64,000 bases of DNA, taken from contig CAKOIY010000001.1 of the NCBI GenBank assembly GCA_934087515.1, forward strand, positions 3,308-67,307, given 5' to 3'. The position numbers were made by a program, and so were the translations under genes. The notes beneath the pieces are model-generated. The model searched no databases, was not told where the DNA came from, and was given only the letters and a program-made list of their open reading frames with translations. Positions 5,139 to 25,422 of the stretch are shown here, piece by piece; the first letter of the stretch is position 1; each line of letters starts with the position of its first letter. Source of the DNA: an uncultured Bacilli bacterium. GTDB taxonomy: Bacteria; Bacillota_I; Bacilli_A; RF39; UBA660.

Positions 5139-7193
5139 ATGAAGAATAATCGTGCTTTTACTTTAGTTGAAATGTTAGCTGTTGTGGTTATACTTGCTAT
5201 TTTAGTGGGGCTTATTGTTCCTAGTGTTTCTGGTTATATTGCAGAGGGAAAGAAAGAATATAATATATCTTTGAAGAAACAGTTGTTACTTGCTGGAAAA
5301 AATTACTATTCTAGTAATAAAGAGAAGTTACCTACTAGGGTGAGTGTTGATGTTAGCAATTTTGTTACTGCTAAGGAGCTTTCTACTTCTAAATATTTGT
5401 CTAAGGATTTAGTGGATTCTAATAAGAATAGTTGTATGGATGATAGTTATGTTGTTGCAAGGAATGATGGTACTGGTGTTAAATATTATTCTTGTTTGAC
5501 TTGTGGTAGTAAGAGTTATTATTCTGGTGATGAGGAAAAGTATTGTAAGAAAATAGAACGTCCAAATATGAATGGAATTTCTTGTAGTATTGATTCTAAT
5601 ACTGTTAAGAATACTGGTTATTCTGTTACTGCTGATGTAAAATATACTGGTAATATTGAAGAACTTTATACTGTTGATGGACATAAAGTTAGACATACTC
5701 AAGTGCTGAGTACAGATAGTTCTAGTACTAAGGTTAAAACTATAAATATTAGTAATTATGGTGATAATTATGTTTATGTTGGTGCTAGTAATGGTAAGTT
5801 GTTGTGTGGTACTATAACTATTCCAAAACCTAGTGATTATGGTGTTATAAGTAAAGATATGTATTTGGTTGATAAGAGTGAATGTGATTCTGTTCGTGAA
5901 AATGGTATTAGTAAGGCTGATTTGAAGAGTGGAAAATATGAAAAATATACTGGGGATAATTGGACTAATAAGTGTATTTATGTTGATCTTAAATATAAGT
6001 CTCTTAGTTTTAAGGAAAAATCTGTTAAATATAAACGAGATAATGCTAATGAAGATAAGTCTGTAACGATAAAAGATAAGCTTAAATATTTTGTAATAGA
6101 TGCTATTAATGATAATGAAAAGGAACATTCTTGGGTTGTGAAGGGAACTTTAAATGATCCTCCATATAATGAGTCTAAAACTGATTTTAATACTAAGATA
6201 GATATTACTTCTCCTAAGGTTATTGTTAAAAATTCTAGTAATGGTGTTTGGACTAATAAGAAAATTACTGTTGATATTACTGCAGAAGATGAGCTTTCAG
6301 GAATTAGGAAAATAGAGTATTCTATTGATAATGGTACGACTTGGACATCTCTTTCTGTTTCTGGTGATGATAAGAAGAAAACTGCTAAAGTTGTATTTGA
6401 TAATACTGAAAACAAAAAATTTAATATGTTAGTTAAGGCTGTTGATAATACTGGTAATATTGGTAATGCATTTACTCCTATAAAATTGGATGTTACTCCT
6501 CCTAGTGTTACTATTTCTAGTTCTAATACTAATTGGACTAAGAATAATGTAACTGTTTCTAGTACTGCTTCTGATAGTCATAGTGGTATTGAAAGTATAG
6601 AATATTCAAAGGATGGTAAGACTTGGTCAACACTTGTTAATGCTACATCTGGTTCTAAGACTTATAGTAGTACTGTGAATGAATATATGTATGTTAGAGC
6701 TAAGGATAAGGCTGGTAATTATAGTAGTAGTAAGAATACTCTTGTTAGAATAGATAAATTACCTCCTAATTCTCCTTATATAAGTACTATTAGTTTTGAA
6801 AAATCTGTTATTAGTGGTAGACATAATTGTTCGGGAGTTGGTGGTACTCAAAGTAATGTCTCTTGTAATGTATGTATATTGTTTACTAAATATAAAGCAT
6901 ATGGTTTTTCTGCTCCTAGAACATATTCTGATGTTGGTGGTAGTGGTGTAGATTATCAACAAAATACTTGGAACCATAATGGTAATGCTAGGACATACAC
7001 TAGTTGGGGTAGTTCAGCTGGTTGGAGTTGGAGAGCTAATAATAATCATTATATGAATTATGTATGGATTGATTTTGGTTCAAGAGTTGTAGATAAGGTT
7101 GGTAATGTTGGGTATCATACAATAGTACATTATAGGATTTATGATACTGATAAGAGATCTGCTTATGATGCTTGCGTTGATGCTTATATATAA
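5139..7193 (+). CDS. Giant modular type IV pilin-like protein (684 aa), paralogue 1
   Basis: The N-terminus MKNNRA|FTLVEMLAVVVILAILVGL has a class-III (prepilin) signal with Glu at +5. A conserved ~130-aa head with a C...CLTC...C pattern is shared with the ORFs at 45827 and 48050. It also has two tandem ~90-aa Ig-like repeats (TPPSVTISS..W.N.VTV..TA.D..SGI..IEYS.DG.TW) and a Cys/Trp/Tyr-rich C-terminus. An RBS AGAGGAGGG lies upstream. Confidence 0.75.
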   Translation: MKNNRAFTLVEMLAVVVILAILVGLIVPSVSGYIAEGKKEYNISLKKQLLLAGKNYYSSNKEKLPTRVSVDVSNFVTAKELSTSKYLSKDLVDSNKNSCMDDSYVVARNDGTGVKYYSCLTCGSKSYYSGDEEKYCKKIERPNMNGISCSIDSNTVKNTGYSVTADVKYTGNIEELYTVDGHKVRHTQVLSTDSSSTKVKTINISNYGDNYVYVGASNGKLLCGTITIPKPSDYGVISKDMYLVDKSECDSVRENGISKADLKSGKYEKYTGDNWTNKCIYVDLKYKSLSFKEKSVKYKRDNANEDKSVTIKDKLKYFVIDAINDNEKEHSWVVKGTLNDPPYNESKTDFNTKIDITSPKVIVKNSSNGVWTNKKITVDITAEDELSGIRKIEYSIDNGTTWTSLSVSGDDKKKTAKVVFDNTENKKFNMLVKAVDNTGNIGNAFTPIKLDVTPPSVTISSSNTNWTKNNVTVSSTASDSHSGIESIEYSKDGKTWSTLVNATSGSKTYSSTVNEYMYVRAKDKAGNYSSSKNTLVRIDKLPPNSPYISTISFEKSVISGRHNCSGVGGTQSNVSCNVCILFTKYKAYGFSAPRTYSDVGGSGVDYQQNTWNHNGNARTYTSWGSSAGWSWRANNNHYMNYVWIDFGSRVVDKVGNVGYHTIVHYRIYDTDKRSAYDACVDAYI

Positions 7194-7201
7194 AATAAAT
7201 T

Positions 7202-7228
7202 GGTTACTTTATGTAACCTTTTTTTTGG
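7202..7228 (+). terminator. Rho-independent terminator after pilin paralogue 1
   Basis: The stem ggttac/gtaacc with loop tttat is followed by a T8 run. Confidence 0.6.
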
Positions 7229-7285
7229 TTTGTTTTTTGTATAATTTTTATTTTTGTACATATATTTTATCAGGAGGAGAGCATT

Positions 7286-7885: not shown

Positions 7886-8095
7886 ATGAGAGAAAAGTCT
7901 ATACTTACTAAGAGAGAAAAGGAAGTTTTTCTATTACTTGTTGAGAATAAGACTACTAAAGATATTGCTTTAGAACTTGGTATAAGTGAAAAAACTGTTA
8001 GAAATCATGTTTCTAATGTTATGCAGAAACTTGGTGTTAAGGGTAGGGCTTCGGCAGTAGTAGAGCTTCTTAAGTTAAATGAAATTACTCTTTAG
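7886..8095 (+). CDS. gerE: GerE-like LuxR-family HTH transcription regulator
   Basis: The translation MREKSILTKREKEVFLLLVENKTTKDIALELGISEKTVRNHVSNVMQKLGVKGRASAVVELLKLNEITL is near-collinear with B. subtilis GerE over its full 74-aa length. An RBS AAGTGAGGG lies upstream. The track's start at 7844 is probably overextended. Confidence 0.75.
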   Translation: MREKSILTKREKEVFLLLVENKTTKDIALELGISEKTVRNHVSNVMQKLGVKGRASAVVELLKLNEITL

Positions 8096-8144
8096 ACATG
8101 TATAAAGTTACATGTCTTTTCATATTGTTTAATAGAGGGATATT

Positions 8145-9059
8145 ATGTTGAGAAGGAAAGCAATTAATAGAATATTTTTTTCTACTATAATATTTTTTAT
8201 AGTTTTTACTCTTTATAGTATGAAATTTGTTGATAAGGTTGTTACTAGTGATAATAGTAAAGATAAGGTTAATGAGGAGATTATTTATACTTTAAATAGT
8301 GATAATTATATATCTAAGACTAGTGTTTATGTGAGTAAGGTTTTGTCCTTGGAGGATAGGGTTAGGGAGAAGTTAGAGATTATGGTTAAGGATAATGATA
8401 AAAATGTTCTTTTGCCTAGTTATTTTAAACCTATTTTACCTCAAAATACTAGAGTTTTGGATGTTGTGGTAGAAGATTGTTTAATAAAGGTATATTTTTC
8501 TAAAGAGCTTAATAATATTAATAAGGAACAGTCTGAGAGAATGATTGAGGCTATAGTGTATACTGTTACAGATGAAAATATTTTAGGTATTGAGATATAT
8601 GTTAATGGGCAGATGTTAAAGTATGTTCCTAATACTAGGAAGGTTCTTCCTACTATACTTACAAAAGATATTGGAATAAATAAGTCTTATGATATTAATG
8701 CTAGTAATGATATATCTAAGGTTGTTATGATGTATTATACAAATGATAATGATAATTATTATGAAGTTCCTGTTACTAAGTATGTTAATGATGATAGGGA
8801 GAAATTAGAGATTATTTTTGATGAGTTTGGTAAGATGAGTTATGATAAGAGTTTGATTAGTATGGTGGAAGGAATTAATGTTCTTGATTATAGTATTTTG
8901 GATGATAGAATAGTTATTGATGTTAATAAGGAACTTAATAAGGAGGAACAGAACTTAGTTTTTAAGTCTATTTTTAGTAATTATGGTGCTAAAAGTATTG
9001 ATCTTTTGGTAAATGGTGAAAAAAAAGTTAAAAAAACAAGAAATGCACTTGAAAATTAA
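8145..9059 (+). CDS. GerM-like (GerMN-domain) sporulation/germination lipoprotein
   Basis: It has an N-terminal signal anchor and a two-lobed organisation. Its size and composition fit GerMN-domain proteins. This is a motif impression only. Confidence 0.4.
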   Translation: MLRRKAINRIFFSTIIFFIVFTLYSMKFVDKVVTSDNSKDKVNEEIIYTLNSDNYISKTSVYVSKVLSLEDRVREKLEIMVKDNDKNVLLPSYFKPILPQNTRVLDVVVEDCLIKVYFSKELNNINKEQSERMIEAIVYTVTDENILGIEIYVNGQMLKYVPNTRKVLPTILTKDIGINKSYDINASNDISKVVMMYYTNDNDNYYEVPVTKYVNDDREKLEIIFDEFGKMSYDKSLISMVEGINVLDYSILDDRIVIDVNKELNKEEQNLVFKSIFSNYGAKSIDLLVNGEKKVKKTRNALEN

Positions 9060-9107
9060 ACTTTTATATTGTATAATTAAGAAGCATTGGTTAATTAATG
9101 TTTATGC

Positions 9108-9184
9108 GTCCTGGTAGCTCAGCAGGATAGAGCAATGGCCTTCTAAGCCATCGGTCAGGGGTTCGAATCCCTTCCAGGACGCCA
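9108..9184 (+). tRNA. tRNA-Arg (anticodon TCT)
   Basis: Cloverleaf parsed by hand. The acceptor stem is GTCCTGG/CCAGGAC, the D-arm GCTC..GAGC, the anticodon stem ATGGC/GCCAT with loop CTTCTAA, and the T-loop TTCGAAT. The 3' CCA is encoded. Confidence 0.85.
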
Positions 9185-9188
9185 TAAT

Positions 9189-9265
9189 CGGGAAGTGGCT
9201 CAACTTGGTAGAGCACTTGGTTTGGGACCAAGGGGTTGCAGGTTCAAATCCTGTCTTCCCGACCA
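9189..9265 (+). tRNA. tRNA-Pro (anticodon TGG)
   Basis: The acceptor stem is CGGGAAG/CTTCCCG, the anticodon stem CTTGG/CCAAG with loop TTTGGGA, and the T-loop TTCAAAT. CCA is encoded. It sits 4 nt after tRNA-Arg. Confidence 0.85.
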
Positions 9266-9324
9266 TTATGTTATTACAGCTCTTGTTTATCAAGAGTTTT
9301 TATTTTATTTAAAAAGGTGATTAT

Positions 9325-9567
9325 GTGGAAAATGGGAAGTGTTTTACTAAACAAGATGTATGTAGTCATGAATTTATAGAACTTTGTGAGGAAACTTCTA
9401 AAACATATGATGGGTATTATTTAGATGTTAAGAAGTATAAGTATGGAGAGATGTATAAGCTTTATATTTGTAAGAAATGTAGTAAGATAGTATGCGTTGA
9501 TTTTAATATTAATGATAGGAGTCCTGTTGTAGAGTTTGAGAGGAAGAATAAAGTTAGGAAAAGATAA
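9325..9567 (+). CDS. Small hypothetical Cys-rich protein (80 aa; two CxxC pairs, possible zinc ribbon)
   Basis: The ORF has a GTG start after AAAAAGGTGA. It contains the motifs CSHEFIELCEE and CKKCSKIVC. Confidence 0.3.
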   Translation: MENGKCFTKQDVCSHEFIELCEETSKTYDGYYLDVKKYKYGEMYKLYICKKCSKIVCVDFNINDRSPVVEFERKNKVRKR

Positions 9568-9652
9568 AGTGTAAAGTTTTGGATAAGTTTTATGTTTTGT
9601 CTTTTTTATTGGTTTATTTTTTAGTAAAATATAATTTTATGAGAGGTGTTTT

Positions 9653-10354
9653 ATGAATAAATTAAATCATGTTGCAATTATTGTTGATGGAAATGGAAGA
9701 TGGGCTAAGGAAAGGGGTAAGTCTAGAAGTGAAGGTCATTTGGAGGGTTCTAAGGTTTTGGAAAAGCTTATTTTTCATGTTTCTGATAATACTGAGATAA
9801 AGTATCTTAGTTTATATGTTTTTTCTACTGAGAATTTTAAGAGAGATAAGTCTGAGGTTGATTATTTGATGAGTTTGTTTATTAAGTGGTTTAAGAAAAG
9901 TAAAAGACTTTACAAAGATAAAAATATTAAGATTTTGTTTTCAGGGAGGAAGGAACCTTTAAGTGATAAGGTTTATAACTCGATGAAGGAACTTGAAAGA
10001 GATACTAGGGATAATAATGGTTTGGTGGTTAATTTTTGTCTTAATTATGGTGGTAGGGCTGAAATAGTTGATGCTACTAAGATGATTGTTAATGATGTTA
10101 GTTGTGGTAATATTAGTGTCTCTGATATAGATGAGGATTTGTTTAGTAAATATTTATATAATGAGCTTCCTGATGTTGATTATTTAATTAGGACTAGTGG
10201 TGAGCAAAGGATAAGTAATTTTTTGTTATGGGAGATTTCTTATGCTGAGTTTTGCTTTGTTGATAGTTATTTTCCTGATTTTGATATTTATGAGTTTGAT
10301 AGGGTTATTGAGGAGTATTATTCTAGAAATAGAAGATTTGGTGGTGTAAAGTAG
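9653..10354 (+). CDS. uppS: Undecaprenyl-diphosphate synthase (isoprenyl transferase)
   Basis: The translation MNKLNHVAIIVDGNGRWAKERGKSRSEGH... is the canonical UppS N-terminus (the DGNGRWA motif). Confidence 0.9.
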   Translation: MNKLNHVAIIVDGNGRWAKERGKSRSEGHLEGSKVLEKLIFHVSDNTEIKYLSLYVFSTENFKRDKSEVDYLMSLFIKWFKKSKRLYKDKNIKILFSGRKEPLSDKVYNSMKELERDTRDNNGLVVNFCLNYGGRAEIVDATKMIVNDVSCGNISVSDIDEDLFSKYLYNELPDVDYLIRTSGEQRISNFLLWEISYAEFCFVDSYFPDFDIYEFDRVIEEYYSRNRRFGGVK

Positions 10355-10426
10355 TAGTAAAAAGTAATTTTTCTTGTTTTTCTTCTTTTAAAAATATTTT
10401 ATTTATGGTATCATTTAGATAAGGTA

Positions 10427-10455
10427 TTGCAATTATATCGTTTTTGTGGTATAAT
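10427..10455 (+). promoter_or_regulatory. Sigma-A-type promoter (TTGCAA-17 nt-TGgTATAAT) for the downstream repeat-protein gene
   Basis: The -35 element TTGCAA (10427-10432), a 17-nt spacer and an extended -10 TGGTATAAT (10447-10455) are read directly. The element overlaps the track's proposed start codon at 10444. Confidence 0.55.
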
Positions 10456-10482
10456 ATGCGCGAATTAAGTGAGGTGTTTGAT

Positions 10483-12087
10483 GTGGGCGAAGAATTGAAG
10501 AAGATTATAGATGATCCAAATCTTTCGAATGAAGAAATTGCTAAGCGTGTTAGGGAGACTTTAAATAAAAATTCTGAACAAGTGGTAGAGGATAAAAGTA
10601 AAGAGGAACCTATTTCTGAACTTGAAAAAGCATTAAGTCCTGAGGAACTTAATTATTTAATTAGTGTTCTTGATGTTAGACAAGGAGATGTTCAAACTAA
10701 TAATATAATTAAAAAACTTCAAGATAAAGGTGTTAATTTTACTATGGATGAGTTAGTTTCACTACTTGATAAGAAAAAAGAAGAACGTATGAGCAATAAA
10801 GAAGAATTTTTTAATGAACTTGAAAAAAGAATAAGTAAGGAAGATATGGAATATCTTTTGTCTGTTGATTTAGATAATCCTGGTTCAAAAATTAGTTATA
10901 TTGCTGCTAGGGCTGGAGTTACTAATTATGAAGTTATTGAGCTTGCTAAGTATAGAAAAACACAAATGAAGGAGTATGAGAGACTTTCTATATATGATAA
11001 GGCCTTAAATGAACAAGATTTAAAGTATCTTATGGAAGCTAAGGATGTTAATCAAGCTGATTATGAGATAAATAATATACTTGTTAGACTTAGAAAACAA
11101 GGTATTGATGCTAATTTAAAAGATTTAGCTAGTTTTATAGAGTATAAGAAGGGTGGTATTGATTTTTCTAAATTTGATTCAAATAAAGAACAAAATGAAA
11201 AAGAAAATACTAATGAAAAGGATGTAAAAAAGGATAAGCCTGTATCAAAAGAAGATTTATATAAAGAATATCTTGAGATTGACAAGAGAATCAATGAGAT
11301 TGAAAGTATAATGAGAGAGGCTCTTGAAACTAAGAAGAAGGTTTCTGATGAGCTTGTTGCTGAAAGGAATAGACTTCTTGATAGAAAAAGAGAATTAGTG
11401 CCTCAAATTAAAGATATGCTTAATATAAATGATAAGAAAAAGAAACCTAGAGATTTAAGTGATTACGTTGAAGAACAAAAGCAAGAGAAAGAAAAGCAAG
11501 AAGAACAAAAGGCTGATGATAATGAAATAGTTAGTGAAAGAGATGGTTCTTTCTTATCTAAGGCTAAAGGTTTTATTGATAAAGTAAAGAATTTATCTAC
11601 TAAAGGAAAGATAATTGGTCTTGCAGGACTTGCTGCGGCTGGAGTAATTACTGCTGGTGTATATATGGCTATGAAACATGGCGATGTTCAAACACTTAAT
11701 GATGCTCTTCATCAAGCAGGTATGCATATTCAAGATGCTGCCAATCAACTTAATCCTGATCCAAGTGGAATTGATCCTAGTACTATAGGGCAACATATAG
11801 ATACTACTTTTGTTTCAAGTGGGGATGCTGCTAATTATGCACATGCGTTAAAACCAATTGAGGAGTATTTTCAATATGATATTCAAAATTTAGTTGATTC
11901 ACATAATAATATTATTCCTGCTCATGGTATGTCATATGATGAATTGATAGAACTTATAAAAAATGGTAATGACATTGCTTCTGTGCAAGTTGGTGGTGAT
12001 GCTGCACATATTGATGGGCATCTTAATATTAATGATATTCTTAATGCATATGATGCAACAGTTAAGTCTGGAGGAGCGGTTAGATGA
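10483..12087 (+). CDS. Novel helical-repeat protein A with a C-terminal TM segment (about 535 aa)
   Basis: It contains three ~50-aa repeats of the type L..EDL.YLM.AKDV.QADYEINNIL.RLRKQG.(D/N)ANL.DLA.FIE.KKG, also present in the ORF at 12397. A charged coiled-coil region follows, then one TM helix (IIGLAGLAAAGVITAGVYMAM) and a His/Asp-rich C-terminal domain. The start is placed at GTG 10483 after RBS GAGGTG, because the promoter overlaps the ATGs at 10444 and 10456. Confidence 0.45.
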   Translation: MGEELKKIIDDPNLSNEEIAKRVRETLNKNSEQVVEDKSKEEPISELEKALSPEELNYLISVLDVRQGDVQTNNIIKKLQDKGVNFTMDELVSLLDKKKEERMSNKEEFFNELEKRISKEDMEYLLSVDLDNPGSKISYIAARAGVTNYEVIELAKYRKTQMKEYERLSIYDKALNEQDLKYLMEAKDVNQADYEINNILVRLRKQGIDANLKDLASFIEYKKGGIDFSKFDSNKEQNEKENTNEKDVKKDKPVSKEDLYKEYLEIDKRINEIESIMREALETKKKVSDELVAERNRLLDRKRELVPQIKDMLNINDKKKKPRDLSDYVEEQKQEKEKQEEQKADDNEIVSERDGSFLSKAKGFIDKVKNLSTKGKIIGLAGLAAAGVITAGVYMAMKHGDVQTLNDALHQAGMHIQDAANQLNPDPSGIDPSTIGQHIDTTFVSSGDAANYAHALKPIEEYFQYDIQNLVDSHNNIIPAHGMSYDELIELIKNGNDIASVQVGGDAAHIDGHLNINDILNAYDATVKSGGAVR

Positions 12088-12317
12088 AAGATAAGATAAT
12101 TACTTTAGGAAATGGTAAAGAGTTTTTAATAGTTGATGTTTGTAGATATAATGGTATTGACTATTGCTTGGTGTGTGAAGTAGTTAATAATGATACTACT
12201 GATTCGTTTGGAGTTATTAGAATTGATGAAATTGATGGTAAGCGAAAAATAACTGTTATTGAAGATGAAAATATTATTAAGAATGTATTTGCTATAGTTG
12301 AAAAGAATTTTAGTTAG
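12084..12317 (+). CDS. DUF1292-like small protein (YrzB-like), copy 1
   Basis: The 77-aa ORF has the pattern KIITLGNGKEFLIVDVCRYNGIDYCLVCEVVNND...IRIDEIDG...TVIED. Its start overlaps the stop of the upstream gene (ATGA). Confidence 0.45.
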   Translation: MKDKIITLGNGKEFLIVDVCRYNGIDYCLVCEVVNNDTTDSFGVIRIDEIDGKRKITVIEDENIIKNVFAIVEKNFS

Positions 12318-12396
12318 ATTTTGTTGTGAAATTTATTTATTTATGTTATAATACACGAAAAAGAGGGGTTCCCTTTGTGAGAGGAGATAATAATTT

Positions 12397-13710
12397 ATGA
12401 ACGAAAATGAAAATTTAGAAGCAAGACTTGCTGATCTTGAAAGACAAGTAGCGGAAATTAAAAATATGATTAGTGCTCAAAGTAATAAAAATTTTGATGT
12501 TTCTGTGTATGAAAATGTTTTAAGTGATAGTGATATGGCTTATTTAATGAATGCTAAGGATGTTAGGCAAGCTGATTATGAGATAAATAATATACTTGCT
12601 AGACTTAGAAAGCAAGGTGTTAATGCTAATTTAAATGATTTAGCTAATTTTATTGAATCTAAGAAGGGGACTAGTACTAAGAATGATGATTCTAATGTTA
12701 GTGAAAAGATAAAGGAACTTGCTAGTAAGTTAACTGATTATGATATGAAATATTTATTAAGTATAGAGAATCCTAATCAAACAAACTTTTTATTTAGTAG
12801 TTTAAATGCTAGATATGGAGCAAGTATTGATGATTTGATTGCTGCTGCTAAATATAAGAATGCACATATGAATGATGTTAAGCTTGAAAGTGGTGTAGTT
12901 GCTGAAGAAGAAACTCCTGTTGAGAGTGATAATTTATTAGAAGAACTTGATAGATTAGATAAGAAGTATGAAGAAGCTCTTGATAAAGGTGATGATGTTT
13001 CTGAAATTAATGGTAAAAGAAATGCTGTGCTTGATGCAATTGATAAATCAAAAGTTAATGAATCTGGTAATGTTAGTAGTGTAGTTTCTGATAATGAATA
13101 TCCAAAACTTGAATCTGCTGATATGAATAAGATTTCTCAAATACTTATGAATGCTAAAATTGGTAATAATATATTAAATCAAATGGCTGAAAAGTATGGT
13201 GTTAATAAAGATGTTTTCTATAAAATGTTTAACTTAAATATGCTTGAAAGGAATTTTGGTTTAAAAGTTGAAAAACCTAATAAGATGCCAGAAAAAATTG
13301 AAAGTGTTGATAGTAAGTATAAGGTTGTTCCTGAACCTTCGATGAATGATGAGGTTAAAGGTGTTTATCCTTTGACTGTTGAAGAATTTAAGGAAAATGG
13401 TGGTTTGGAGCCTGATAGTAGAGGTAGAAGATTTGTTAAGAAGATAGCAAATAGTAGGATTATTAGATTTTTGGTTGACAAGGCTAAGGAAATGCATATG
13501 AAAATGAAGATGAAAAAACAAGATGAAATAAGTTATGAGAGTGATTCTTCTGCTATTTCAGAGAAAAATTATGAAAAAATTCCTTCTAAAAAGGAAAAAA
13601 TGGAGGCATATCAAAAAGAAGTAGAAAAGATGAAGGCTAATGAAAATGAGATAGATGAAAATGTAGCTTTTAATGATGAGCCAGAAATAACTAAATTTAA
13701 TGCTAGATAA
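12397..13710 (+). CDS. Novel helical-repeat protein B (437 aa), paralogue of 10483..12087
   Basis: It shares the DMAYLMNAKDVRQADYEINNILARLRKQGVNANLNDLANFIESKKG repeat with protein A. The rest is acidic coiled-coil. An RBS GAGAGGAG and an upstream TTATAAT -10 element are present. Confidence 0.5.
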   Translation: MNENENLEARLADLERQVAEIKNMISAQSNKNFDVSVYENVLSDSDMAYLMNAKDVRQADYEINNILARLRKQGVNANLNDLANFIESKKGTSTKNDDSNVSEKIKELASKLTDYDMKYLLSIENPNQTNFLFSSLNARYGASIDDLIAAAKYKNAHMNDVKLESGVVAEEETPVESDNLLEELDRLDKKYEEALDKGDDVSEINGKRNAVLDAIDKSKVNESGNVSSVVSDNEYPKLESADMNKISQILMNAKIGNNILNQMAEKYGVNKDVFYKMFNLNMLERNFGLKVEKPNKMPEKIESVDSKYKVVPEPSMNDEVKGVYPLTVEEFKENGGLEPDSRGRRFVKKIANSRIIRFLVDKAKEMHMKMKMKKQDEISYESDSSAISEKNYEKIPSKKEKMEAYQKEVEKMKANENEIDENVAFNDEPEITKFNAR

Positions 13711-13725
13711 GAAAGGGGAAAAAAT

Positions 13726-13977
13726 ATGACTTTTAAAAGATATGATGTTATTACTTTTGAAGAAAATGATAAGGTAGTGGTACTTGCTGCACTTGTGCAT
13801 GAAGGAAATGAATATGTTTATGTTAATGAGATATTACCTGATGAATCTGATGTAACTGATGTATATAAGGTAATGGTTGTGCATTATGAAGATGGGACAC
13901 TTGAAAAGGTAATTGATCCTGAACTTCTTCATGTATTGTTACCTAAGTTTCAAGAGTTATTAGAACAAGCTGATTAA
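13726..13977 (+). CDS. DUF1292-like small protein, copy 2
   Basis: The translation YDVITFEENDKVVVLAALVHEGNEYVYVNEILPDESD..VYKVMVVHYEDGTLEKV follows the DUF1292 pattern. Confidence 0.5.
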   Translation: MTFKRYDVITFEENDKVVVLAALVHEGNEYVYVNEILPDESDVTDVYKVMVVHYEDGTLEKVIDPELLHVLLPKFQELLEQAD

Positions 13978-13978
13978 A

Positions 13979-14012
13979 GTTAAACTTATTCTGAGTTATG
14001 AATAAGTTTCTT
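13979..14012 (+). terminator. Rho-independent terminator
   Basis: A perfect 10-bp stem aaacttattc/gaataagttt has an 8-nt loop and is followed by a T-rich run. Confidence 0.6.
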
Positions 14013-14032
14013 TTGTATGGGTGGTGAATATA

Positions 14033-14935
14033 ATGAGCAATGAAGTTAAAAAATTAAGTGAAAAAGCTAGTGATGAAGATAAAGTTAGAATTGAAAAACT
14101 AATGGAATTACCTCTTAATGATAGTGAACGTGATGCTTCTATTAAGTTAATTGTTTTGGATTCTTTTGCTAAGTTAATGTATGATGATGAATTAAATATA
14201 GTTTTTGATGAGTCTGATAAGGCAAAGGATGCAAGAGATGCTATTGCTAATAGATTAGGTGTTGATTCTGATGAATTACAGATGATTGCTGATTATAAGA
14301 AGAAGAATAATGTTAAATGTACTTTGAATAGAAATGATGTTATAAAGAAGAATTCTGATCTTAATGAATTTATTGATAAGATGAGTGTTGCAGAGATGAA
14401 TTCTATACTTAATATGAAGGCATCTGGTAATTATGATGATAATATTTTGAATAATATTTCTAGTAGAATTGGTGCTTCTGCTTCTAAACTTGAAGAAATT
14501 GCTGTTGAAAAGAATAAAGGTCTTATGAGTGGTAAGAATAATGATAAATCTATGGAAAATGGTGAGTCTAAATCTTTAGATGAAAATAATAATAATAATA
14601 ATGACAAAGATAAAGATAAAGAAAAGGAAGTTACTTCTAGTTCTAGTGGGTCTAATGGCACTAATCTTGAAGAAAAAGATGATTCTTCAAAGACTAAGGT
14701 TTCTGCTGATTTAACTCCTGAAAAGAAGAAAAAACCTAATAGAATTACTACAGCAGGTGCTAAACTTATTGCTTCGATTAAAAATAATAAAGGTAAAGCT
14801 ATGCTTGGTATATTAGGTCTTGGTGCTGTTGCAGTTCTTGCTATTACTAATCCTGTTATGTTTTGGACTTTACTTGCTGCGGCTGGTATTGGTAAGATAT
14901 ATAAAGATTTTCAAGCTGGAGCAAAAGGTAGATAA
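14033..14935 (+). CDS. Hypothetical protein with Asn/Asp/Lys low-complexity region and C-terminal membrane hairpin
   Basis: The ORF has an RBS GGTGGTGA and ATG at 14033. An N-terminal helical region is followed by the low-complexity stretch ENNNNNNDKDKDKEKE. The C-terminus LGILGLGAVAVLAI..LLAAAGIG is hydrophobic. Confidence 0.45.
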   Translation: MSNEVKKLSEKASDEDKVRIEKLMELPLNDSERDASIKLIVLDSFAKLMYDDELNIVFDESDKAKDARDAIANRLGVDSDELQMIADYKKKNNVKCTLNRNDVIKKNSDLNEFIDKMSVAEMNSILNMKASGNYDDNILNNISSRIGASASKLEEIAVEKNKGLMSGKNNDKSMENGESKSLDENNNNNNDKDKDKEKEVTSSSSGSNGTNLEEKDDSSKTKVSADLTPEKKKKPNRITTAGAKLIASIKNNKGKAMLGILGLGAVAVLAITNPVMFWTLLAAAGIGKIYKDFQAGAKGR

Positions 14936-14997
14936 AAATTATAAATACGGTTTAATTACTGTATTTTTTTTGTTATACTTATATATAGGTGATAGAG

Positions 14998-15981
14998 ATG
15001 GGAATATTTGATAGAATTAGAAATAGTTTTAAGAAAGAAGTAAAAGAAGATAATAAAGAAGTTAAGTTATATGATAAGGGTCTTACTAAGACTAGGGATA
15101 ATTTTGTTTCTAAACTTGTTAATATAACTAATAAATATAATAAAGTTAATGAAGAGTTTTTTATGGAACTTGAGGAAATATTAATTATGGCAGATCTTGG
15201 AGTTAATACAGTTATGAAATTTATGGATAGACTTAGAGATAGGGTGCGTCATGAACATATTGAGGATCCTTCTTTGCTTAGGGAAATTATTGTAGATGAG
15301 TTATTTATTATTTATGTAAATAACGAGGTTATTGTAAATAAGATTAATTATGCTAAGGAAGGTCCTACTGTTATTTTGTTTGTAGGTGTTAATGGTGTTG
15401 GTAAGACTACTTCTATTGCAAAGATTGCTACTAAGGAAATAAGTAAAGGCAAGAAAGTGTTAATGGTTGGTGCTGATACTTTTAGAGCTGGTGCTGTTAA
15501 GCAACTTAAGGAATGGGCTGATAGAACTGGTGCTTCTTTTGTTGGTGATGAATCTATGAAGGATCCAGCTTCTGTTGTATATGATGGGCTTAAGAAAGCT
15601 AAAGAAGAAGACTTTGATGTTGTGTTAATAGATACGGCTGGTCGTCTTCAAAATAAGGTTAATTTGATGAAGGAACTTGAAAAGATTAATAAGATAATAA
15701 CTAATTTTATTCCAGATGCTCCACATGAGACTTTGCTTGTTATTGATGCTACAACTGGTCAAAATGGTATTAGTCAGGCTAAGACTTTTAAAGAGGTTAC
15801 TAATATTACTGGAATAGTTCTTACTAAACTTGATGGTACTGCTAAGGGAGGTATAGTTCTTGCTATAAAAGATGAGGTAGATATTCCTGTTAAGTATGTA
15901 GGACTTGGGGAAAAGGCTGAAGATCTTAGTGTATTTGATATTGAAAACTATATATATGGTTTGTTTAAGGATATGATATGA
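14998..15981 (+). CDS. ftsY: Signal recognition particle receptor FtsY
   Basis: It has the NG domain with GVNGVGKTTSIAKIA (G1), DTAGR and TKLDGTAKGG. It is a short form lacking the acidic A-domain, as in Bacillus. Confidence 0.9.
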   Translation: MGIFDRIRNSFKKEVKEDNKEVKLYDKGLTKTRDNFVSKLVNITNKYNKVNEEFFMELEEILIMADLGVNTVMKFMDRLRDRVRHEHIEDPSLLREIIVDELFIIYVNNEVIVNKINYAKEGPTVILFVGVNGVGKTTSIAKIATKEISKGKKVLMVGADTFRAGAVKQLKEWADRTGASFVGDESMKDPASVVYDGLKKAKEEDFDVVLIDTAGRLQNKVNLMKELEKINKIITNFIPDAPHETLLVIDATTGQNGISQAKTFKEVTNITGIVLTKLDGTAKGGIVLAIKDEVDIPVKYVGLGEKAEDLSVFDIENYIYGLFKDMI

Positions 15982-16265
15982 TGAATGATACTGTTTATTT
16001 GACTATTTTATTTGATTATTATGAGTCTCTTTTAAGTGATAGAGATAGAAGTTGTTTTAGGGATTATTATTTTTCTAATTTGTCTTTATCTGAGATTGCT
16101 CTTGCTAGTAGTGTTTCTAGAAATGCTATTCATAAGAGACTTAAGAAGATATGTGATGAACTTTACTTATATGAGAGCAAACTTGGTTTGTATGAAAAGG
16201 AAAAGAGAATTATGGATCTTATTCATGATGAGGTTTTAAAGGAAAAGATTAAGGAGATTCTTTAG
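15978..16265 (+). CDS. ylxM: YlxM/UPF0122 family putative DNA-binding protein
   Basis: This is a sigma-70 region-4-like small protein (LSLSEIALASSVSRNAIHKRLKK). It lies immediately downstream of ftsY with an overlapping start, as in the Bacillus ftsY-ylxM arrangement. Confidence 0.65.
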   Translation: MMNDTVYLTILFDYYESLLSDRDRSCFRDYYFSNLSLSEIALASSVSRNAIHKRLKKICDELYLYESKLGLYEKEKRIMDLIHDEVLKEKIKEIL

Positions 16266-16343
16266 GTTTTAATAGCCTGTTTTTTTTTTACTTTCTATTT
16301 TTTTTTACTTTACTTTTTTTTTATTTTCTTTGTTTAAAATTGT

Positions 16344-16378
16344 TGACTTATGTAGTTTGTTTTTATATACTTAGGGTG
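16344..16378 (+). promoter_or_regulatory. Sigma-A-like promoter (TTGACT-17-TATACT) for the S8 protease gene
   Basis: The elements are read directly from the sequence. They sit in a poly-T-rich 140-nt intergenic region. Confidence 0.45.
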
Positions 16379-16404
16379 TAAAATAGAAAGGAGAATATAT
16401 TATT

Positions 16405-19008
16405 GTGAAAAGAAAGATTATAATAATGGTTTTGGCTATTAGTTTATTTGTTCCTATTTCTTATGTAAGTGCTAGTGATAATACTTATAGTTTTGATGAA
16501 GTTAGTACGAATGAACTTTTGGATGATAAGGATTATAAGAGTGATGAACTTATTGTAGTTTTTAATGATAATTTATCTAATAAAGCCATTAATAATGTTG
16601 TTAGAAATGAGAATGCTATTGTTAAGAATATTAAGAGGCTTGATGATGATTCTGTGAGTGTTAGGGTTAAGATTTCTGATGATATGGAAACTGCTATTGA
16701 TAGTTTTAAGGATAATCCTAGAGTTGCTTTTGTACAACCTAATTATAAGTATAAAGTAAATTCTGATGCTAGTGTTTATAACAATCCTAATTATCAATAT
16801 CATATTGATCTTATTAAGACTAAAGAGGCTTGGAGTTTAGTTGAGTCTAAGGGTAATACTACTAAGGTTTCTGTTATTGATACTGGTGTTGATGTTAAAC
16901 ATGAGGATTTACAAAAAAATTTGGTTTCTAATAGTAGTTATACTCAAACTGTTGGTGGAATTAAGAAACAAGTTGTGTATGATTCTGATCATCATGGTAC
17001 ACATGTTACTGGAATAATTGGTGCAACTTATGGTAATGGTATTGGTGTTTCTGGTGTTGCTTCAGGTAATAATAATAATTTAGCTAAGATTATGGTGGTT
17101 GGAACAAGTTTTGACGGGGAAAGTATGTATACTTCAGATATTATTGATGCTATTAATTATTCTAAAGATAATGGCGCTAAAGTTATTAATATGAGTTTGG
17201 GTGGTACTGGTAGAGATAGGGCAATGGAAGCTGCTATTCGTGATGCTTATGATAATGGCATTGTGCTTGTTGCAGCATCTGGTAATGACGAATCTAATGA
17301 GTTTAGTTCACCAAGTGATTTTAAAGAGGTAATAAGTGTTAATGCTTCTAATAAGTATAATAAGCCTGTTTATTGGTCTGATTATGGTATTAGTAAAGAT
17401 ATTAGTGCACCTGGTTATAATATACTTAGTACTACTCCTGGAAATACTTATGAATTACTTAGTGGTACTTCTATGGCATCACCAATTGTTGCCGGGGTAG
17501 TTGCTTTAATGCTTGATGCTAATCCTAGTTTGACTCCTGCTGAGGTGTATAATATACTTTGTGCTAGTACTGGTCAAAGTGATTTTGATGAAATGCTTGG
17601 TTATGGTATTGTAAATGCTAAGGAAGCTGTTTCTGCTGCTATAGATGCTAGTTCTTCAGTTGATGTAGATTCTGTATCTATAAAAGATTATGATGCTTCT
17701 TATAGTGCTGATTATGATGCTGTTGTTTATGAAAATGATGATATTTCTTTAGAGGCTTTGGTTAGGCCTGCGACTTCTTTAAAGAAAGTTGAATGGTCTA
17801 GTAGTGATGATTCTATTGCTAAAGTTGATTCTGTTACTGGTAGGGTTACTGGTGTTAAGTCAGGATTTGTTACAATAACTGCTAGTGTTTCTGGTAAGAG
17901 TGATAGTGTTTTAGTTAAGGTTAAGGAGTCTTTATCTCAAACTGGTATATCTATTGTATCTAAAGAAGATTATTCTAGTATTGTAAAAGGTTCTTCTTAT
18001 GAACTTAAGGCTAATATTTTACCTAGTAATGCTACTAATAAAGAAGTTTATTGGTCTTCTAGTGATAGAACTGTTGCAGATATAAATGAACTTGGTATTC
18101 TTACTGGTAAATCTTCTGGAAAGGCTACTATTACAGTTAAAACTTATGATGGAAAGTATTATGATAGTTTTGACGTAATTGTTACTAGTCCTGCTAGTGT
18201 TAAACTTACTAAGTATGCTTCTAAGTTACTTGTTGGTAATAAGTATACTTATAAGGGTTATGTTTTAGATATAGATGGTAAGAAAACTAATGATAAGATT
18301 ATATGGTCTAGTACTAGTGCTAGTATTGCTAAGATAGATAGTAATGGAACTGTTACTGCACTTAAGCCTGGTACTACTTATATAGTTGGTACTGTTAAGG
18401 GTACTGATCAAGGAAATCGTCTTGTTAAGGTAGCATATAGATTGTTTGTTGGTAAGACTAATTATGCTTTAGGAGATTATAATCTTAAAGTTAGAAAGGT
18501 TACTTATAATAGTGTTACTTTGAATTGGAATAAGATTAATGTTGCTAGTAAATATATAGTTGAAAGAGCTATGAGTTCTAATGGTTCTTATGCAAAGATT
18601 GGTGAGGTTACGGGTACTTCTTATAAGGATTCTAATGTTGTTTTAGGTAAAAGATATTATTATAGAATAAAGGCTGTTTATAGTAGTACTAAGTCATTTA
18701 GTTATTCTTATAGTGTTAATGCTTTAGTTTCTCTTGATAAACCAGTTATTTCTGTTACTAATTATAAGTCTAGATATTTAAAGATTTCTATTAATAAAGT
18801 TCCTAGTGCTAGAGGTTATACTATATATAGAGCTAGTTCTGTTAATGGTTCTTATAAGGTAGTTACTTCTACTACTAAGAATTATTATATTAATGGTAAG
18901 CTTGTTAAGAATAAGAGATATTATTATAAAGTTAGGGCTTATAAGGTTGTTAATGGTAAGAAAGTATATAGTCCTTATTCAAGTATTAAGAGTAGGGTAG
19001 TTAGGTAG
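16405..19008 (+). CDS. Secreted subtilisin-like serine protease (S8) with C-terminal Big_2 and fibronectin-III-like domains
   Basis: It has a signal peptide and the catalytic triad context VIDTGVD (Asp), HGTHVTG (His) and GTSMASPIVAG (Ser). Three SKxxxxATVDxxGxVTAxKxGTATIT-type Ig-like repeats follow, then W/Y-rich FN3-like repeats. Confidence 0.85.
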   Translation: MKRKIIIMVLAISLFVPISYVSASDNTYSFDEVSTNELLDDKDYKSDELIVVFNDNLSNKAINNVVRNENAIVKNIKRLDDDSVSVRVKISDDMETAIDSFKDNPRVAFVQPNYKYKVNSDASVYNNPNYQYHIDLIKTKEAWSLVESKGNTTKVSVIDTGVDVKHEDLQKNLVSNSSYTQTVGGIKKQVVYDSDHHGTHVTGIIGATYGNGIGVSGVASGNNNNLAKIMVVGTSFDGESMYTSDIIDAINYSKDNGAKVINMSLGGTGRDRAMEAAIRDAYDNGIVLVAASGNDESNEFSSPSDFKEVISVNASNKYNKPVYWSDYGISKDISAPGYNILSTTPGNTYELLSGTSMASPIVAGVVALMLDANPSLTPAEVYNILCASTGQSDFDEMLGYGIVNAKEAVSAAIDASSSVDVDSVSIKDYDASYSADYDAVVYENDDISLEALVRPATSLKKVEWSSSDDSIAKVDSVTGRVTGVKSGFVTITASVSGKSDSVLVKVKESLSQTGISIVSKEDYSSIVKGSSYELKANILPSNATNKEVYWSSSDRTVADINELGILTGKSSGKATITVKTYDGKYYDSFDVIVTSPASVKLTKYASKLLVGNKYTYKGYVLDIDGKKTNDKIIWSSTSASIAKIDSNGTVTALKPGTTYIVGTVKGTDQGNRLVKVAYRLFVGKTNYALGDYNLKVRKVTYNSVTLNWNKINVASKYIVERAMSSNGSYAKIGEVTGTSYKDSNVVLGKRYYYRIKAVYSSTKSFSYSYSVNALVSLDKPVISVTNYKSRYLKISINKVPSARGYTIYRASSVNGSYKVVTSTTKNYYINGKLVKNKRYYYKVRAYKVVNGKKVYSPYSSIKSRVVR

Positions 19009-19018
19009 GAGGTAGAGT

Positions 19019-20707
19019 ATGAAAAAGAAAATTATATCGTTAGTTTTAGTATGTGCATTACTTATTACTATTTTACCTAGTGGTGTTAGTGCTCTTAGTA
19101 AGGTTAATCCTTCAGAGAAGAAGGAGGTTTCTTTAAAGAAAGTTAATGATAAGTCTTTAATTGTTAAAACTCCGACTGCTAAGCAAATTAGAAAGGCTGG
19201 TAGTGAACTTGATTTTTATAAACAAAGTTTTATTGAACAAGTTGAGGAGACTTATTCTCGATATGATTATGTAACTTATATTGATTCTGTTAGGAAGGCT
19301 TTTGAGAAGGCACATCAAGAGGCTATTGATACACTTAATAATCTTAGTTCTTTAGATGATTTGTTTTATGATTATGAGGAAGGTACTGTTTCTTTAGATG
19401 TTAATTTACCTTATGCTACTATGACTACTATTGGTGGTTGGGATTATGATTATGTTACTACTGATAATTATTATTTGACTTTGAAAAAACGTGGTCTTAA
19501 GGCTATAAATGATGCTTTTGATTGTTTTTATGAAGGGGATTTTAGTACTTATTATAATACTATAATTAATTCTTATCGTAGTGAGTATTTAGGATATGTA
19601 AGTAGTGCTAATGATTATTATTCACTTGCTAAAGGTTTTGCTAATATTGGTTTAGTTGGAGATTATAATAATTTTACATATGTTGATATTTCTTTTGATT
19701 TAGATAATTATAATGGTGAAGATGCTGAATCTATGTCTGGTTCTTGTCAATATGATGCTTATGGTTATTTTCCTGATTTTGAATATGTAGAGTTTTTAAA
19801 TAGTGTTGGTATTGCGTCTATTCCTTCTTATTCTCTTGGTCGTGTTATTTATTCTTTAGGAGAAGTTCAAGATACTAAAAATGCTTTTAGTGCATATATT
19901 AATAATTATGTATATGAACAACTTAAAGCTAGTGGTTATAAGGTTACTGATGAGATTATAGATATGGCTGATAAGACTCTTGATGATATTAATAATGGTT
20001 ATAATCCTGATACTATGTATACTAAGTATATTGATTTGATTGAAAAATTTGAAGATATGACTGGTGTTACTTATCAAAAACTTAGTTCTACTACTACATT
20101 TAAACTTGCTGCTGGTATTGATAAGTTATCTAAGAAGTATTTGGATAAAAAAGTTTATTCTAATGCTGGTTATAATACTAATTATAATCTATTAGATAAT
20201 GCTAGTAGTGCTATTAATGTTGTGTATGAGGTAGAAATACCTAGAAATTTCTTGGTTAAGCTTGAAAAACTTCTTAAGAAGACTCCAACTAGAGTTGTTG
20301 AACTTAGTAATGCCAAGAAGTCATATGCTAATAAGTTAAATACTTTTAAGAATAATAAAAAGTATAATCAAAAGAAAGTTGTTCCTATTGTTAATGAGGG
20401 AATTAGTAAAATAAATAAGGCTACTTCAGTTGATAGTGTTAAGAGTATATATAATACTTATTATAAGAAGGCTTTACTTACTATAAATAAATATAAGATA
20501 ACTACTTCAAAGACTGGTAAGGGTGTTATTACCAAGAGTAAAACTGTTAATTATGGTTCTAATGTTGTTATTACTATGACTCCTAGTAAGGGTTATAAAC
20601 TTAGTAAGGTTTATGTAGATGGTAAACGTGTTAGTGTTAAGAGTAAGTATACATTTAAGAATGTTACTTTGAATCATTCTATAAAGGCAGTTTTTGTTAA
20701 GAAGTAG
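19019..20707 (+). CDS. Secreted hypothetical protein with a C-terminal Listeria-Bacteroides (Flg_new/InlB B-repeat-like) domain
   Basis: A signal peptide is present. The C-terminal motif is GKGVITKSKTVNYGSNVVITMTPSKGYKLSKVYVDGKRVSV. Confidence 0.55.
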   Translation: MKKKIISLVLVCALLITILPSGVSALSKVNPSEKKEVSLKKVNDKSLIVKTPTAKQIRKAGSELDFYKQSFIEQVEETYSRYDYVTYIDSVRKAFEKAHQEAIDTLNNLSSLDDLFYDYEEGTVSLDVNLPYATMTTIGGWDYDYVTTDNYYLTLKKRGLKAINDAFDCFYEGDFSTYYNTIINSYRSEYLGYVSSANDYYSLAKGFANIGLVGDYNNFTYVDISFDLDNYNGEDAESMSGSCQYDAYGYFPDFEYVEFLNSVGIASIPSYSLGRVIYSLGEVQDTKNAFSAYINNYVYEQLKASGYKVTDEIIDMADKTLDDINNGYNPDTMYTKYIDLIEKFEDMTGVTYQKLSSTTTFKLAAGIDKLSKKYLDKKVYSNAGYNTNYNLLDNASSAINVVYEVEIPRNFLVKLEKLLKKTPTRVVELSNAKKSYANKLNTFKNNKKYNQKKVVPIVNEGISKINKATSVDSVKSIYNTYYKKALLTINKYKITTSKTGKGVITKSKTVNYGSNVVITMTPSKGYKLSKVYVDGKRVSVKSKYTFKNVTLNHSIKAVFVKK

Positions 20708-20788
20708 TACTAGTTATTAGAAAAACATTCTATAGGGTGTTTTTCTTTTTTTGTCTAAACATAAAAAAAATACTTAAACCAAGTATTT

Positions 20789-25345: not shown

Positions 25346-25422
25346 GTCCTCGTAGCTCAGCTGGATAGAGCAATTGCCTCCTAAGCAATAGGTCGAAGGT
25401 TCAAATCCTTTCGAGGACGCCA
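25346..25422 (+). tRNA. tRNA-Arg (anticodon CCT)
   Basis: The acceptor stem is GTCCTCG/CGAGGAC, the D-arm GCTC..GAGC, the anticodon stem ATTGC/GCAAT with loop CTCCTAA, and the T-loop TTCAAAT. CCA is encoded. Confidence 0.85.

Follow-up and report, generated by a model that had tools for sequence, protein, structure and literature searches.

Proteins of the DUF1292/UPF0473 family (PF06949; YrzB in Bacillus subtilis) are canonically encoded beside ruvX, in the order ruvX/yrrK–yrzB(–mltG), as in Bacillus and Enterococcus. In E. faecium, ruvX adjoins the DUF1292 gene (PMC13014144). No functional study of DUF1292/UPF0473 turned up in the literature searched. Here we analyze a block of five genes located between uppS and ftsY in a 64,000-nt stretch of DNA (hereafter, the window) from an uncultured Bacilli bacterium (assembly GCA_934087515.1, contig CAKOIY010000001.1, positions 3,308 to 67,307, forward strand). 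Two small genes of this block resemble DUF1292 genes in that their products are short (77–83 amino acids, aa) and acidic. Unlike the known genes of the family, they lie between uppS and ftsY, each after a large gene encoding a helical repeat protein, and no YqgF/RuvX gene has been found among the neighbours examined. An earlier note on this DNA, made from the letters alone, considered the pairing with a repeat protein unusual for DUF1292, and rightly so, as the pairing differs from the canonical context and is conserved across lineages.

In what follows, the large genes are called A, B and C, the small genes a and b, and the large partner genes in relatives X. The block and its flanks are as follows.

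9653-10354, plus strand, uppS, left flank (Pfam Prenyltransf, 250 bits)
10483-12087, plus strand, gene A, 534 aa, GTG start, GAGGTG ribosome-binding site 6 nt upstream
12084-12317, plus strand, gene a, 77 aa, DUF1292 family; ATGA overlap of the A stop and the a start
12397-13710, plus strand, gene B, 437 aa, acidic, without a hydrophobic segment
13726-13977, plus strand, gene b, 83 aa, divergent DUF1292-like; 15 nt past the B stop, same frame
14033-14935, plus strand, gene C, 300 aa, predicted tail-anchored
14998-15981, plus strand, ftsY, right flank (Pfam SRP54, 255 bits)
15978-16265, plus strand, ylxM, right flank (Pfam UPF0122, 73 bits)

The Pfam scores of the flanking genes bear out the placement of the block between uppS and ftsY–ylxM. 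Independent gene calls, taken from two metagenome contigs with an identical locus, yield products of 534, 77, 437, 83 and 300 aa; A, a, B, b and C are real genes, syntenic in relatives.

For a survey of co-occurrence in relatives, as had been proposed in the earlier note, approximately 40 loci with a b-type gene were gathered and scored uniformly, 37 of them being assessable. The survey shows a conserved two-gene unit, in which a large acidic, rapidly evolving helical protein, usually membrane-anchored, is followed by a small, well-conserved DUF1292-type protein. In 34 of the 37 loci, a large unannotated gene of the same orientation precedes the b-type gene by 4–36 nt. Twenty-one of these upstream genes (X, ~340–480 aa) encode a C-terminal hydrophobic anchor, and nine, from the window's species and three other lineages, encode soluble repeat-bearing B-type proteins. 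The usual order in relatives is uppS, X, b, ftsY, ylxM. A-type proteins, recognised by their juxtamembrane region and ectodomain, are present in the sister species (locus L005) and in two further lineages (L043 and L023), and an a-type gene always comes next, with the identical 4-nt overlap; thus, the overlap is kept in four lineages, though the A proteins are only 30–50% identical. The pairing is type-specific, A occurring with a, and B or X with b. The full A–a–B–b–C order is found in L005, where a Fic gene is added before ftsY; L043 has A–a–B–b, and L023, a different expansion with three small genes.

An overlap of stop and start codons is a classic signature of translational coupling of complex subunits. 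The adjacency of the large and small genes is conserved and type-specific, and the two are very probably translationally coupled, judging from the gene arrangement. Two paralogous pair types can be distinguished on sequence grounds, and these are old, as separate A–a and B–b pairs are seen in at least three other lineages (L005, L043 and L023). The single X–b pair is presumably the ancestral state, with the window lineage carrying an expansion. Taken together, the comparison of gene orders shows the block as a lineage-specific, chromosomally fixed expansion of the conserved two-gene unit.

This expansion is not the simple tandem duplication of a two-gene module that had been proposed initially, as A and B have only the repeat region in common, their architectures differ, and a and b are only 24% identical. 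Neither is a recent duplication tenable, since a single 169-nt repeat unit is near-identical (82%), and the A–a and B–b pairs are already separate in the three lineages named above. The lone 169-nt repeat fits unit exchange rather than module duplication.

The explanation towards which we lean, if with less than even confidence, is that the large proteins are membrane tethers and scaffolds, each being produced together with a DUF1292-type subunit of its own, to which it binds. The main arguments for the binding are the conserved stop/start overlap and the type-specific pairing.

The earlier note had placed a DUF1292-like gene after each of the two repeat genes. This holds directly for a, whose match to the Pfam DUF1292 profile (26.2 bits at a cut-off of 24, E=1.5e-5, profile positions 3–72 of 75) is the only one reaching the threshold when all five proteins are compared with Pfam and NCBIfam. 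In its literal form it fails for b, which has no Pfam match at E<=1; b and all 37 relatives checked fall under the DUF1292 threshold. Still, b is a homologue of a. The two proteins align with E=0.002; an HMM (hidden Markov model) of the b family retrieves a at E=3.8e-6 (HMM positions 7–74) among 488 six-frame open reading frames (ORFs) of the window; phmmer with a retrieves, from other lineages, b-type proteins with E-values of 2e-6 to 2e-4; and hhalign of a and b yields a probability of 81% (P=1.2e-5). Moreover, DUF1292 is the Pfam family matched by most b-family members, with sub-threshold matches in 6 of 37 (best E=0.0022). As the b-family HMM, phmmer and hhalign all link b to a, we conclude that b represents a divergent branch of the DUF1292 superfamily missed by the current Pfam model.

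The b family comprises 100 homologue clusters with 47–94% identity, none of them annotated in Pfam, and by far exceeds the A and C families in size. AlphaFold2 models b with five strands and a C-terminal helix at pLDDT (predicted local distance difference test) 82. A Foldseek search of this model against PDB and BFVD yields nothing below E=0.03, and the top fold matches, tyrosine phosphatases, are partial beta-sheet overlaps, which we dismiss as meaningless. No DUF1292 structure has been found in PDB by sequence or fold search.

The large proteins are linked by a helical unit of 54–59 aa, present in three copies in A, three in B and two in C.

10609-10785, 10801-10971 and 10981-11157, plus strand, units of A (aa 43–101, 107–163 and 167–225), located with cross-trained HMMs
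12496-12672, 12700-12870 and 13090-13251, plus strand, units of B (aa 34–92, 102–158 and 232–285)
14135-14308 and 14351-14521, plus strand, units of C (aa 35–92 and 107–163)
10985-11153 and 12500-12668, plus strand, 169-nt direct repeat with 82% identity, corresponding to A unit 3 and B unit 1

The repeat had been noticed earlier in A and B, with three copies in the former and one or two in the latter. The kinship of the two proteins and the count for A agree with our data; B has three units, and of all units, only A unit 3 and B unit 1 conform to the strict consensus proposed. The N-terminal halves of A and B align by BLASTP with E=4e-22 and 2e-16, the HMM trained on A units alone retrieves B units at E=7.5e-25 and 7e-4, and the HMM trained on B units alone retrieves all three A units at 5.8e-17, 3.3e-6 and 2e-3. 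C is linked weakly by leave-one-protein-out HMMs, and the A/B-type unit profile aligns with the C-family unit profile over the whole unit length (hhalign probability 94%, P=9e-8). Hence the design of C, which had been described as similar to that of the other two, was understated in this respect, C carrying two copies of the same unit. Two subtypes of the unit are observed, the long one with ..NNIL.RLRKQG(V/I)(D/N)ANL.DLA.FIE.KKG and the short one with ..IAxRxGVxxxxLxxxAKYKxxQ. The pair of A unit 3 and B unit 1 seen in the 169-nt repeat reappears in the alignment to another strain (L001).

In the AlphaFold2 model of A, built on a shallow alignment of 9 sequences, the repeat region is predicted at pLDDT ~80–87 and the remainder poorly; each unit comprises a short helix and three longer ones. 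Its core consists of a helix, a G–V turn and a second helix with helix-turn-helix (HTH) spacing (h-IAxRxGV(S/T/D)xxxLxxxAxYK), and the net charge of the units ranges from –4 to 0. The spacing of helix, glycine turn and helix and the predicted short helix plus three helices resemble tri-helical HTH domains. Unlike these, the units are neutral to acidic, occur in arrays, and reside within membrane-anchored acidic proteins; HTH-type Pfam profiles run against 15 units give at best E=0.07–0.2, each in one unit (HTH_38, E=0.2, 1/15). We thus read the unit as an HTH-shaped protein-binding module, probably not a DNA binder. The second half of the unit also resembles the two-helix core of LysM; the differences are that the units have neither the beta strands nor the remainder of LysM and are inferred to be cytoplasmic, and LysM (PF01476) matches one of the 15 units (E=0.13), with no full-length match.

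The repeat had not been recognised as any named domain, and the searches agree: no Pfam or NCBIfam family reaches the threshold for whole proteins or single units, and a profile search of all PDB sequences returns only designed toroid repeats and chance matches. An exhaustive HMMER search with the unit profile against 1.84 billion representative proteins (E<=1e-3) yields 74 proteins, of which approximately 25 cover the whole unit, all being the same kind of protein from the same clade. Apart from A/B-type relatives, these proteins combine one or two units with a low-complexity, acidic linker and, at the C-terminus, a hydrophobic hairpin whose last residues are K.YKDFQAGAKGR-like. The remaining ~50 proteins match profile positions 25–48 only, several times per protein, and such IAxRYGI..DL-type partial matches (e.g., P0180) were rejected as instances of the domain. 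A word-indexed search of 5.8 billion proteins retrieves 27 proteins related to A and 23 related to C, all nameless and without a Pfam domain. Finally, a pattern-based scan matches two of 185,579 species genomes, namely, an "uncultured Bacilli bacterium" metagenome-assembled genome (MAG) from the Hadza gut and a MAG labelled Lachnospiraceae. Since relatives are so few in the 1.84 and 5.8 billion proteins and the 185,579 genomes, the unit is, judging from these searches, a narrow, lineage-specific domain, undescribed at the sequence level. Further repeat types occur in family members (C-type relatives P0072 and P0073, L005 11708-12250, and P0021), including a ~50-aa unit IE.YIEQLKK(E/D)YQLSDEELYDRLKKGMFS.. 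in 2–3 copies and a short (R/K)PGYDTIA.LYGV motif in 2–5 copies; therefore, the family draws on several interchangeable modules.

Outside the units, the large proteins are built differently.

10609-11157, plus strand, repeat array of A, a hypervariable cassette of three units, four predicted helices each
11158-11604, plus strand, charged linker of A with predicted long coiled-coil-like helices (aa 226–374)
11605-11673, plus strand, predicted transmembrane helix of A (aa 375–397; Kyte-Doolittle mean >1.5), preceded by a K-rich segment
11674-12084, plus strand, predicted ectodomain of A (aa 398–534, ~135 aa), at least two allelic forms
~14522-14740, plus strand, low-complexity linker of C, D/N/K/S-rich
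~14741-14932, plus strand, basic juxtamembrane motif and predicted hydrophobic hairpin of C

A is an acidic (pI 5.0) bitopic membrane protein, in which a short conserved N-terminal head is followed by the three units, long charged helices (AlphaFold2 helices 256–282, 289–312, 326–343 and 356–373, with conserved motifs LYKEY..EIE and ERNRL.DRKREL in the linker), the transmembrane helix and the ectodomain, the latter being shared with the A-type proteins of L043 and L023. As the K-rich segment precedes the transmembrane helix, the positive-inside rule suggests an N-in/C-out topology, with the repeats in the cytoplasm. A candidate metal site in the juxtamembrane helix (KHGD..HQ.G.H..D) was rejected, as its histidines are lost in the A-type proteins of L043 and L023. 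Foldseek with the full-length A model, confident only in the repeats, finds nothing in PDB at E<1. B, whose orthologs are P0027, P0185, P0204 and proteins of L005 and L043, has no hydrophobic segment; an amphipathic membrane-binding helix was also considered for B and discarded, since no outstanding hydrophobic-moment signal is seen. In C, the hairpin (aa 254–284) has an N–P turn and basic residues on both sides.

The anchor of C and that of X in relatives are homologous (hhalign 98%, P=1e-13), the homology covering the C-terminal 85 residues of X, including a non-hydrophobic motif pE..KKP..I..A..KL...I. Beyond the anchor, X proteins can hardly be aligned with A, B or C (20–30% identity, in low-complexity regions), and they have no Pfam or NCBIfam match at threshold, the X protein of L012 having a SHOCT-like N-terminus at 16 bits with a cut-off of 27. 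The predicted anchor is of two kinds, a C-terminal hairpin in the X and C types and a single transmembrane helix with an ectodomain in the A type. The order of a helical region, a D/N/K stretch and a membrane hairpin, which the earlier note had described in C as a repetition of the general design, is indeed present there; judging from the predicted architectures, A, B and C share the unit, not the overall design.

Two described layouts work in a similar way, and the likeness is to be taken in this sense only. C and X resemble ZipA-like tethers, as a low-complexity acidic linker and a basic juxtamembrane helix connect their helical head to the anchor, with the orientation reversed, as their anchor is C-terminal; A resembles the bitopic RodZ/MapZ layout, its HTH-shaped cytoplasmic head being joined by a transmembrane helix to a small ectodomain. 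The Pfam and NCBIfam searches reveal no kinship, in sequence or profile, with ZipA, EzrA, RodZ, MapZ or SepX/GlpR.

The large genes could also be fast-drifting, low-complexity, lineage-specific ORFs without functional coupling to the small genes, which would merely be their operon-mates. The very poor conservation of A, B, C and X, their abundant low-complexity sequence and the lack of a known domain are consistent with this explanation. We consider it quite improbable, as the frames are intact, the head–linker–anchor architecture is kept across lineages down to ~25% identity, the units are predicted at pLDDT 80–87, the 4-nt A–a overlap is conserved, and the pairing is type-specific. Were the pairing only an accident of operon structure, the block would reduce to ordinary lineage-specific hypothetical genes.

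The rates of evolution of the large and small proteins differ widely. Compared to L005, b is 92%, a 73%, A 41–51%, C 48–51% and B 12–33% identical (the ranges depend on normalisation), and compared to more distant lineages, b is 59–87% identical, with 53–69% for uppS, 74–88% for ftsY and 44–64% for ylxM. The small proteins are thus conserved similarly to, or above, uppS and ftsY, and A, B and C are fast-evolving. In addition, the identity to L005 jumps across the block (window 7886-19008), from 49–75% in the upstream genes (gerM 64%, uppS 75%), with the exception of a short gerE-like gene (90%), to 92–98% in the downstream ones (ftsY 92%, ylxM 97%, S8 peptidase 98%), which points to a recombination breakpoint in or beside the block.

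At the strain level, the alleles are mosaic. In P0013 the A repeats are 97% identical to those of the window and the ectodomain 31%; in P0015, on the contrary, the repeats are 26% identical and the ectodomain 99%; and in P0016 the repeats are 98% identical, and the sequence from the linker onwards, 33–46%. In strain L018, 10564-11220 (the A repeat cassette) is unalignable within flanks that are 97–98% identical, and in L003 it is 11767-12078 (the A ectodomain) that cannot be aligned. The number of units among alleles varies from one to three. Moreover, in other strains, the B-type P0185 has 223 aa of units and linker in common with the A-type P0018 (E=6e-29). This sharing, together with the 82% identity of A unit 3 and B unit 1 over 169 nt, shows, at the level of sequence comparison, that units have been exchanged between paralogues, and unit number and subtype differ between strains.

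The hypervariability could itself be the function. The block would then be an arms-race locus, in which the large proteins serve as targets, receptors, sensors or decoys for phages or other invaders, the A ectodomain being a phage receptor or surface antigen, the repeat arrays bait, and the small protein an effector or regulator. Independent swapping of the repeat cassette, linker and ectodomain inside ~98% identical flanks and the varying number of units agree with this explanation, as do the accessory genes that the uppS–ftsY interval of relatives gathers around the X–b pair: Fic (L005, 14477-15286), PDDEXK_2 nuclease-like and LRR_5 genes (L009, 7518-8471; L016, 6352-7440) and, beside a b-type gene, a ParE/Phd toxin–antitoxin pair (L014, 5019-5592). 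The same accumulation suggests an integration or recombination hot spot. We nevertheless regard an arms-race function as unlikely, if a serious contender. The only PADLOC match is that of A to a CARF model (14.8 bits, E=0.005, 55 residues), with none for a, B, b or C, and PHROGs yield nothing meaningful for the five proteins; no relative has been found by tblastn of b against a phage collection and 72,556 plasmids, nor among the viral contigs scanned; enzymatic and effector domains are not detected; and the pair occupies a fixed core-genome position in several lineages, unlike typical defence islands.

One locus connects the pair to mobile elements. In L011 (1-14252), the genes of a tail-anchored X-type protein and of a b-type one with 47% identity (5828-7252) lie amid a cluster of conjugative type IV secretion system (T4SS) genes that includes a VirB4-like ATPase (54 bits), TrbL_4/VirB6 (28.4), a T2SSE ATPase (91) and an M23 hydrolase (82). 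The module might be a component of mating-pair formation or exclusion, derived from a conjugative or other mobile element and since fixed in the chromosome. This origin seems very improbable, since L011 stands alone among ~40 loci; neither a T4SS, a relaxase or an integrase nor repeat boundaries are present in the window block, whose neighbours (uppS, ftsY, ylxM and the S8 peptidase) include no conjugative T4SS gene; the arrangement is syntenic between housekeeping genes in every other lineage; and no match is found in the 72,556 plasmids. Capture of the host pair by an element is the likelier direction.

Two candidate promoters fall within the block.

10427-10455, plus strand, promoter-like site before A in the uppS–A gap (TTGCAA, 17 nt, TG-TATAAT; 10/12 positions)
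12324-12352, plus strand, intergenic promoter-like site before B (TTGTGA, 17 nt, TG-TATAAT; 10/12 positions)

These two best sigma-70-like sites of the region, which are consensus matches only, coincide with the two larger intergenic gaps of the block. No terminator-like sites were found in the block, Tandem Repeats Finder reports only short low-complexity arrays and no notable tandem DNA repeats there, and an Rfam scan of the whole window yields three tRNAs only and no RNA element within the block.

The promoter type and the gene neighbourhood bear on a further explanation, in which the large proteins are morphogenetic membrane anchors of sporulation or cell division in spore-forming Bacilli, with a role like that of SpoVID/SipL, SpoIIIAH or divisome tethers. 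The block is preceded by spoIIIAH, the gerE-like gene and gerM and followed by spoIVA, ftsA and ftsZ, and the combination of an anchor, a flexible acidic linker and a protein-binding head is typical of scaffolds. Gene neighbourhood in a compact genome is, however, weak evidence. The best promoter-like sites are of the sigma-A type and not sigma-E, -K, -F or -G; no profile match to a sporulation or divisome family is seen, SepX/GlpR (NF050100) scoring 11.7 bits (E=0.17) with C at a cut-off of 150; and core morphogenetic proteins are not usually strain-mosaic. A sporulation or division scaffold is therefore distinctly unlikely in our view.

Several features of the window itself and of the region upstream of uppS deserve mention. 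The window has ~29% GC, and nearly all its long ORFs are on the plus strand, an extreme leading-strand bias; the GC skew is +0.27 to +0.51 in all 2-kb bins but one, and this sole dip (20001-22000) coincides with spoIVA on the minus strand. Two of the tRNAs, tRNA-Arg(tct) and tRNA-Pro(tgg), are at 9108-9184 and 9189-9265, and the third is at 25346-25419. A 63-aa minus-strand "ORF" at 9102-9293 is an artefact, as its reading frame runs across the tRNAs. Just downstream of the tRNA pair, at 9325-9567, lies a gene whose conserved 80-aa product has cysteine pairs of the CxxC type (C..H...C, CKKCSKIVC) and no Pfam match; it is syntenic between the tRNAs and uppS in L005, L016 and L018. Between this gene and uppS, other strains of the species have an extra unannotated gene of 463–499 aa (L018 3682-5073, L001 16-1407, L003 593-2092), while the window has only 86 nt (9568-9652). 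Membership of the extra strain-variable 463-aa protein in the family of A is unsupported (BLASTP against A, E=0.19). In L005 (9386-9877), as well as in L004 and L006–L008, uppS is called with 163 aa, compared to 233 aa in the window, with ~300 nt uncalled upstream, which could be caused by a frameshift, an alternative start or an assembly error.

Returning to the tether and scaffold explanation, we can outline how the block might operate. Each large protein would be co-translated with its cognate small protein, bind it, and hold it at the cytoplasmic face of the membrane. The anchorless B would act via C or A. The small protein would be the conserved working subunit, and the large proteins, interchangeable tethers or scaffolds, whose repeat arrays would set valency and partner choice. 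The A ectodomain would be exposed outside the cell and subject to diversifying pressure. Expression from the predicted sigma-A-type promoters would be vegetative. A role in the cell envelope or in membrane assembly seems most likely.

A number of observations weigh against this explanation. The word "tether" is not directly applicable to B, as it has no membrane segment, and the B–b–C order of the window differs from the common X–b arrangement. In L014/L015, the b-type gene has no such partner and is located beside a gene for a TPR-like 142-aa protein and a ParE/Phd pair. The high conservation of b relative to L005 may partly reflect a recombined block, as the genes downstream are also 92–98% identical. 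The number of promoter-like sites in the region does not exceed the shuffled expectation. Lastly, the structure searches of A and b yielded no significant match, and thus fold provides no functional analogy.

A bolder possibility, which we consider rather unlikely, is that A, B, C and X represent a new superfamily, whose members would be membrane-anchored scaffolds that shuffle cassettes and have DUF1292-type proteins as dedicated ligands. The hypervariable locus, with its surface- and cytoplasm-exposed alleles, would be maintained by unit exchange between paralogues under diversifying selection, e.g., by phages or conjugative elements. If this is true, it would give the first functional handle on DUF1292, as a membrane-recruited subunit.

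The case is limited to a narrow uncultured lineage. The DUF1292 family is known, if uncharacterised; the unit, the C-terminal anchor module, the partner family and the pairing context are new. The unit and the anchor module are definable domains, suitable for annotating a family that is nameless in all sources searched. Mosaic alleles at this fixed position in the core genome can serve as a natural marker of strains and may reflect selection exerted by phages or mobile elements on this uncultured human-gut lineage. Finally, DUF1292/UPF0473 is widespread in Firmicutes, and the type-specific pairing offers a testable hypothesis on the role of the small protein.

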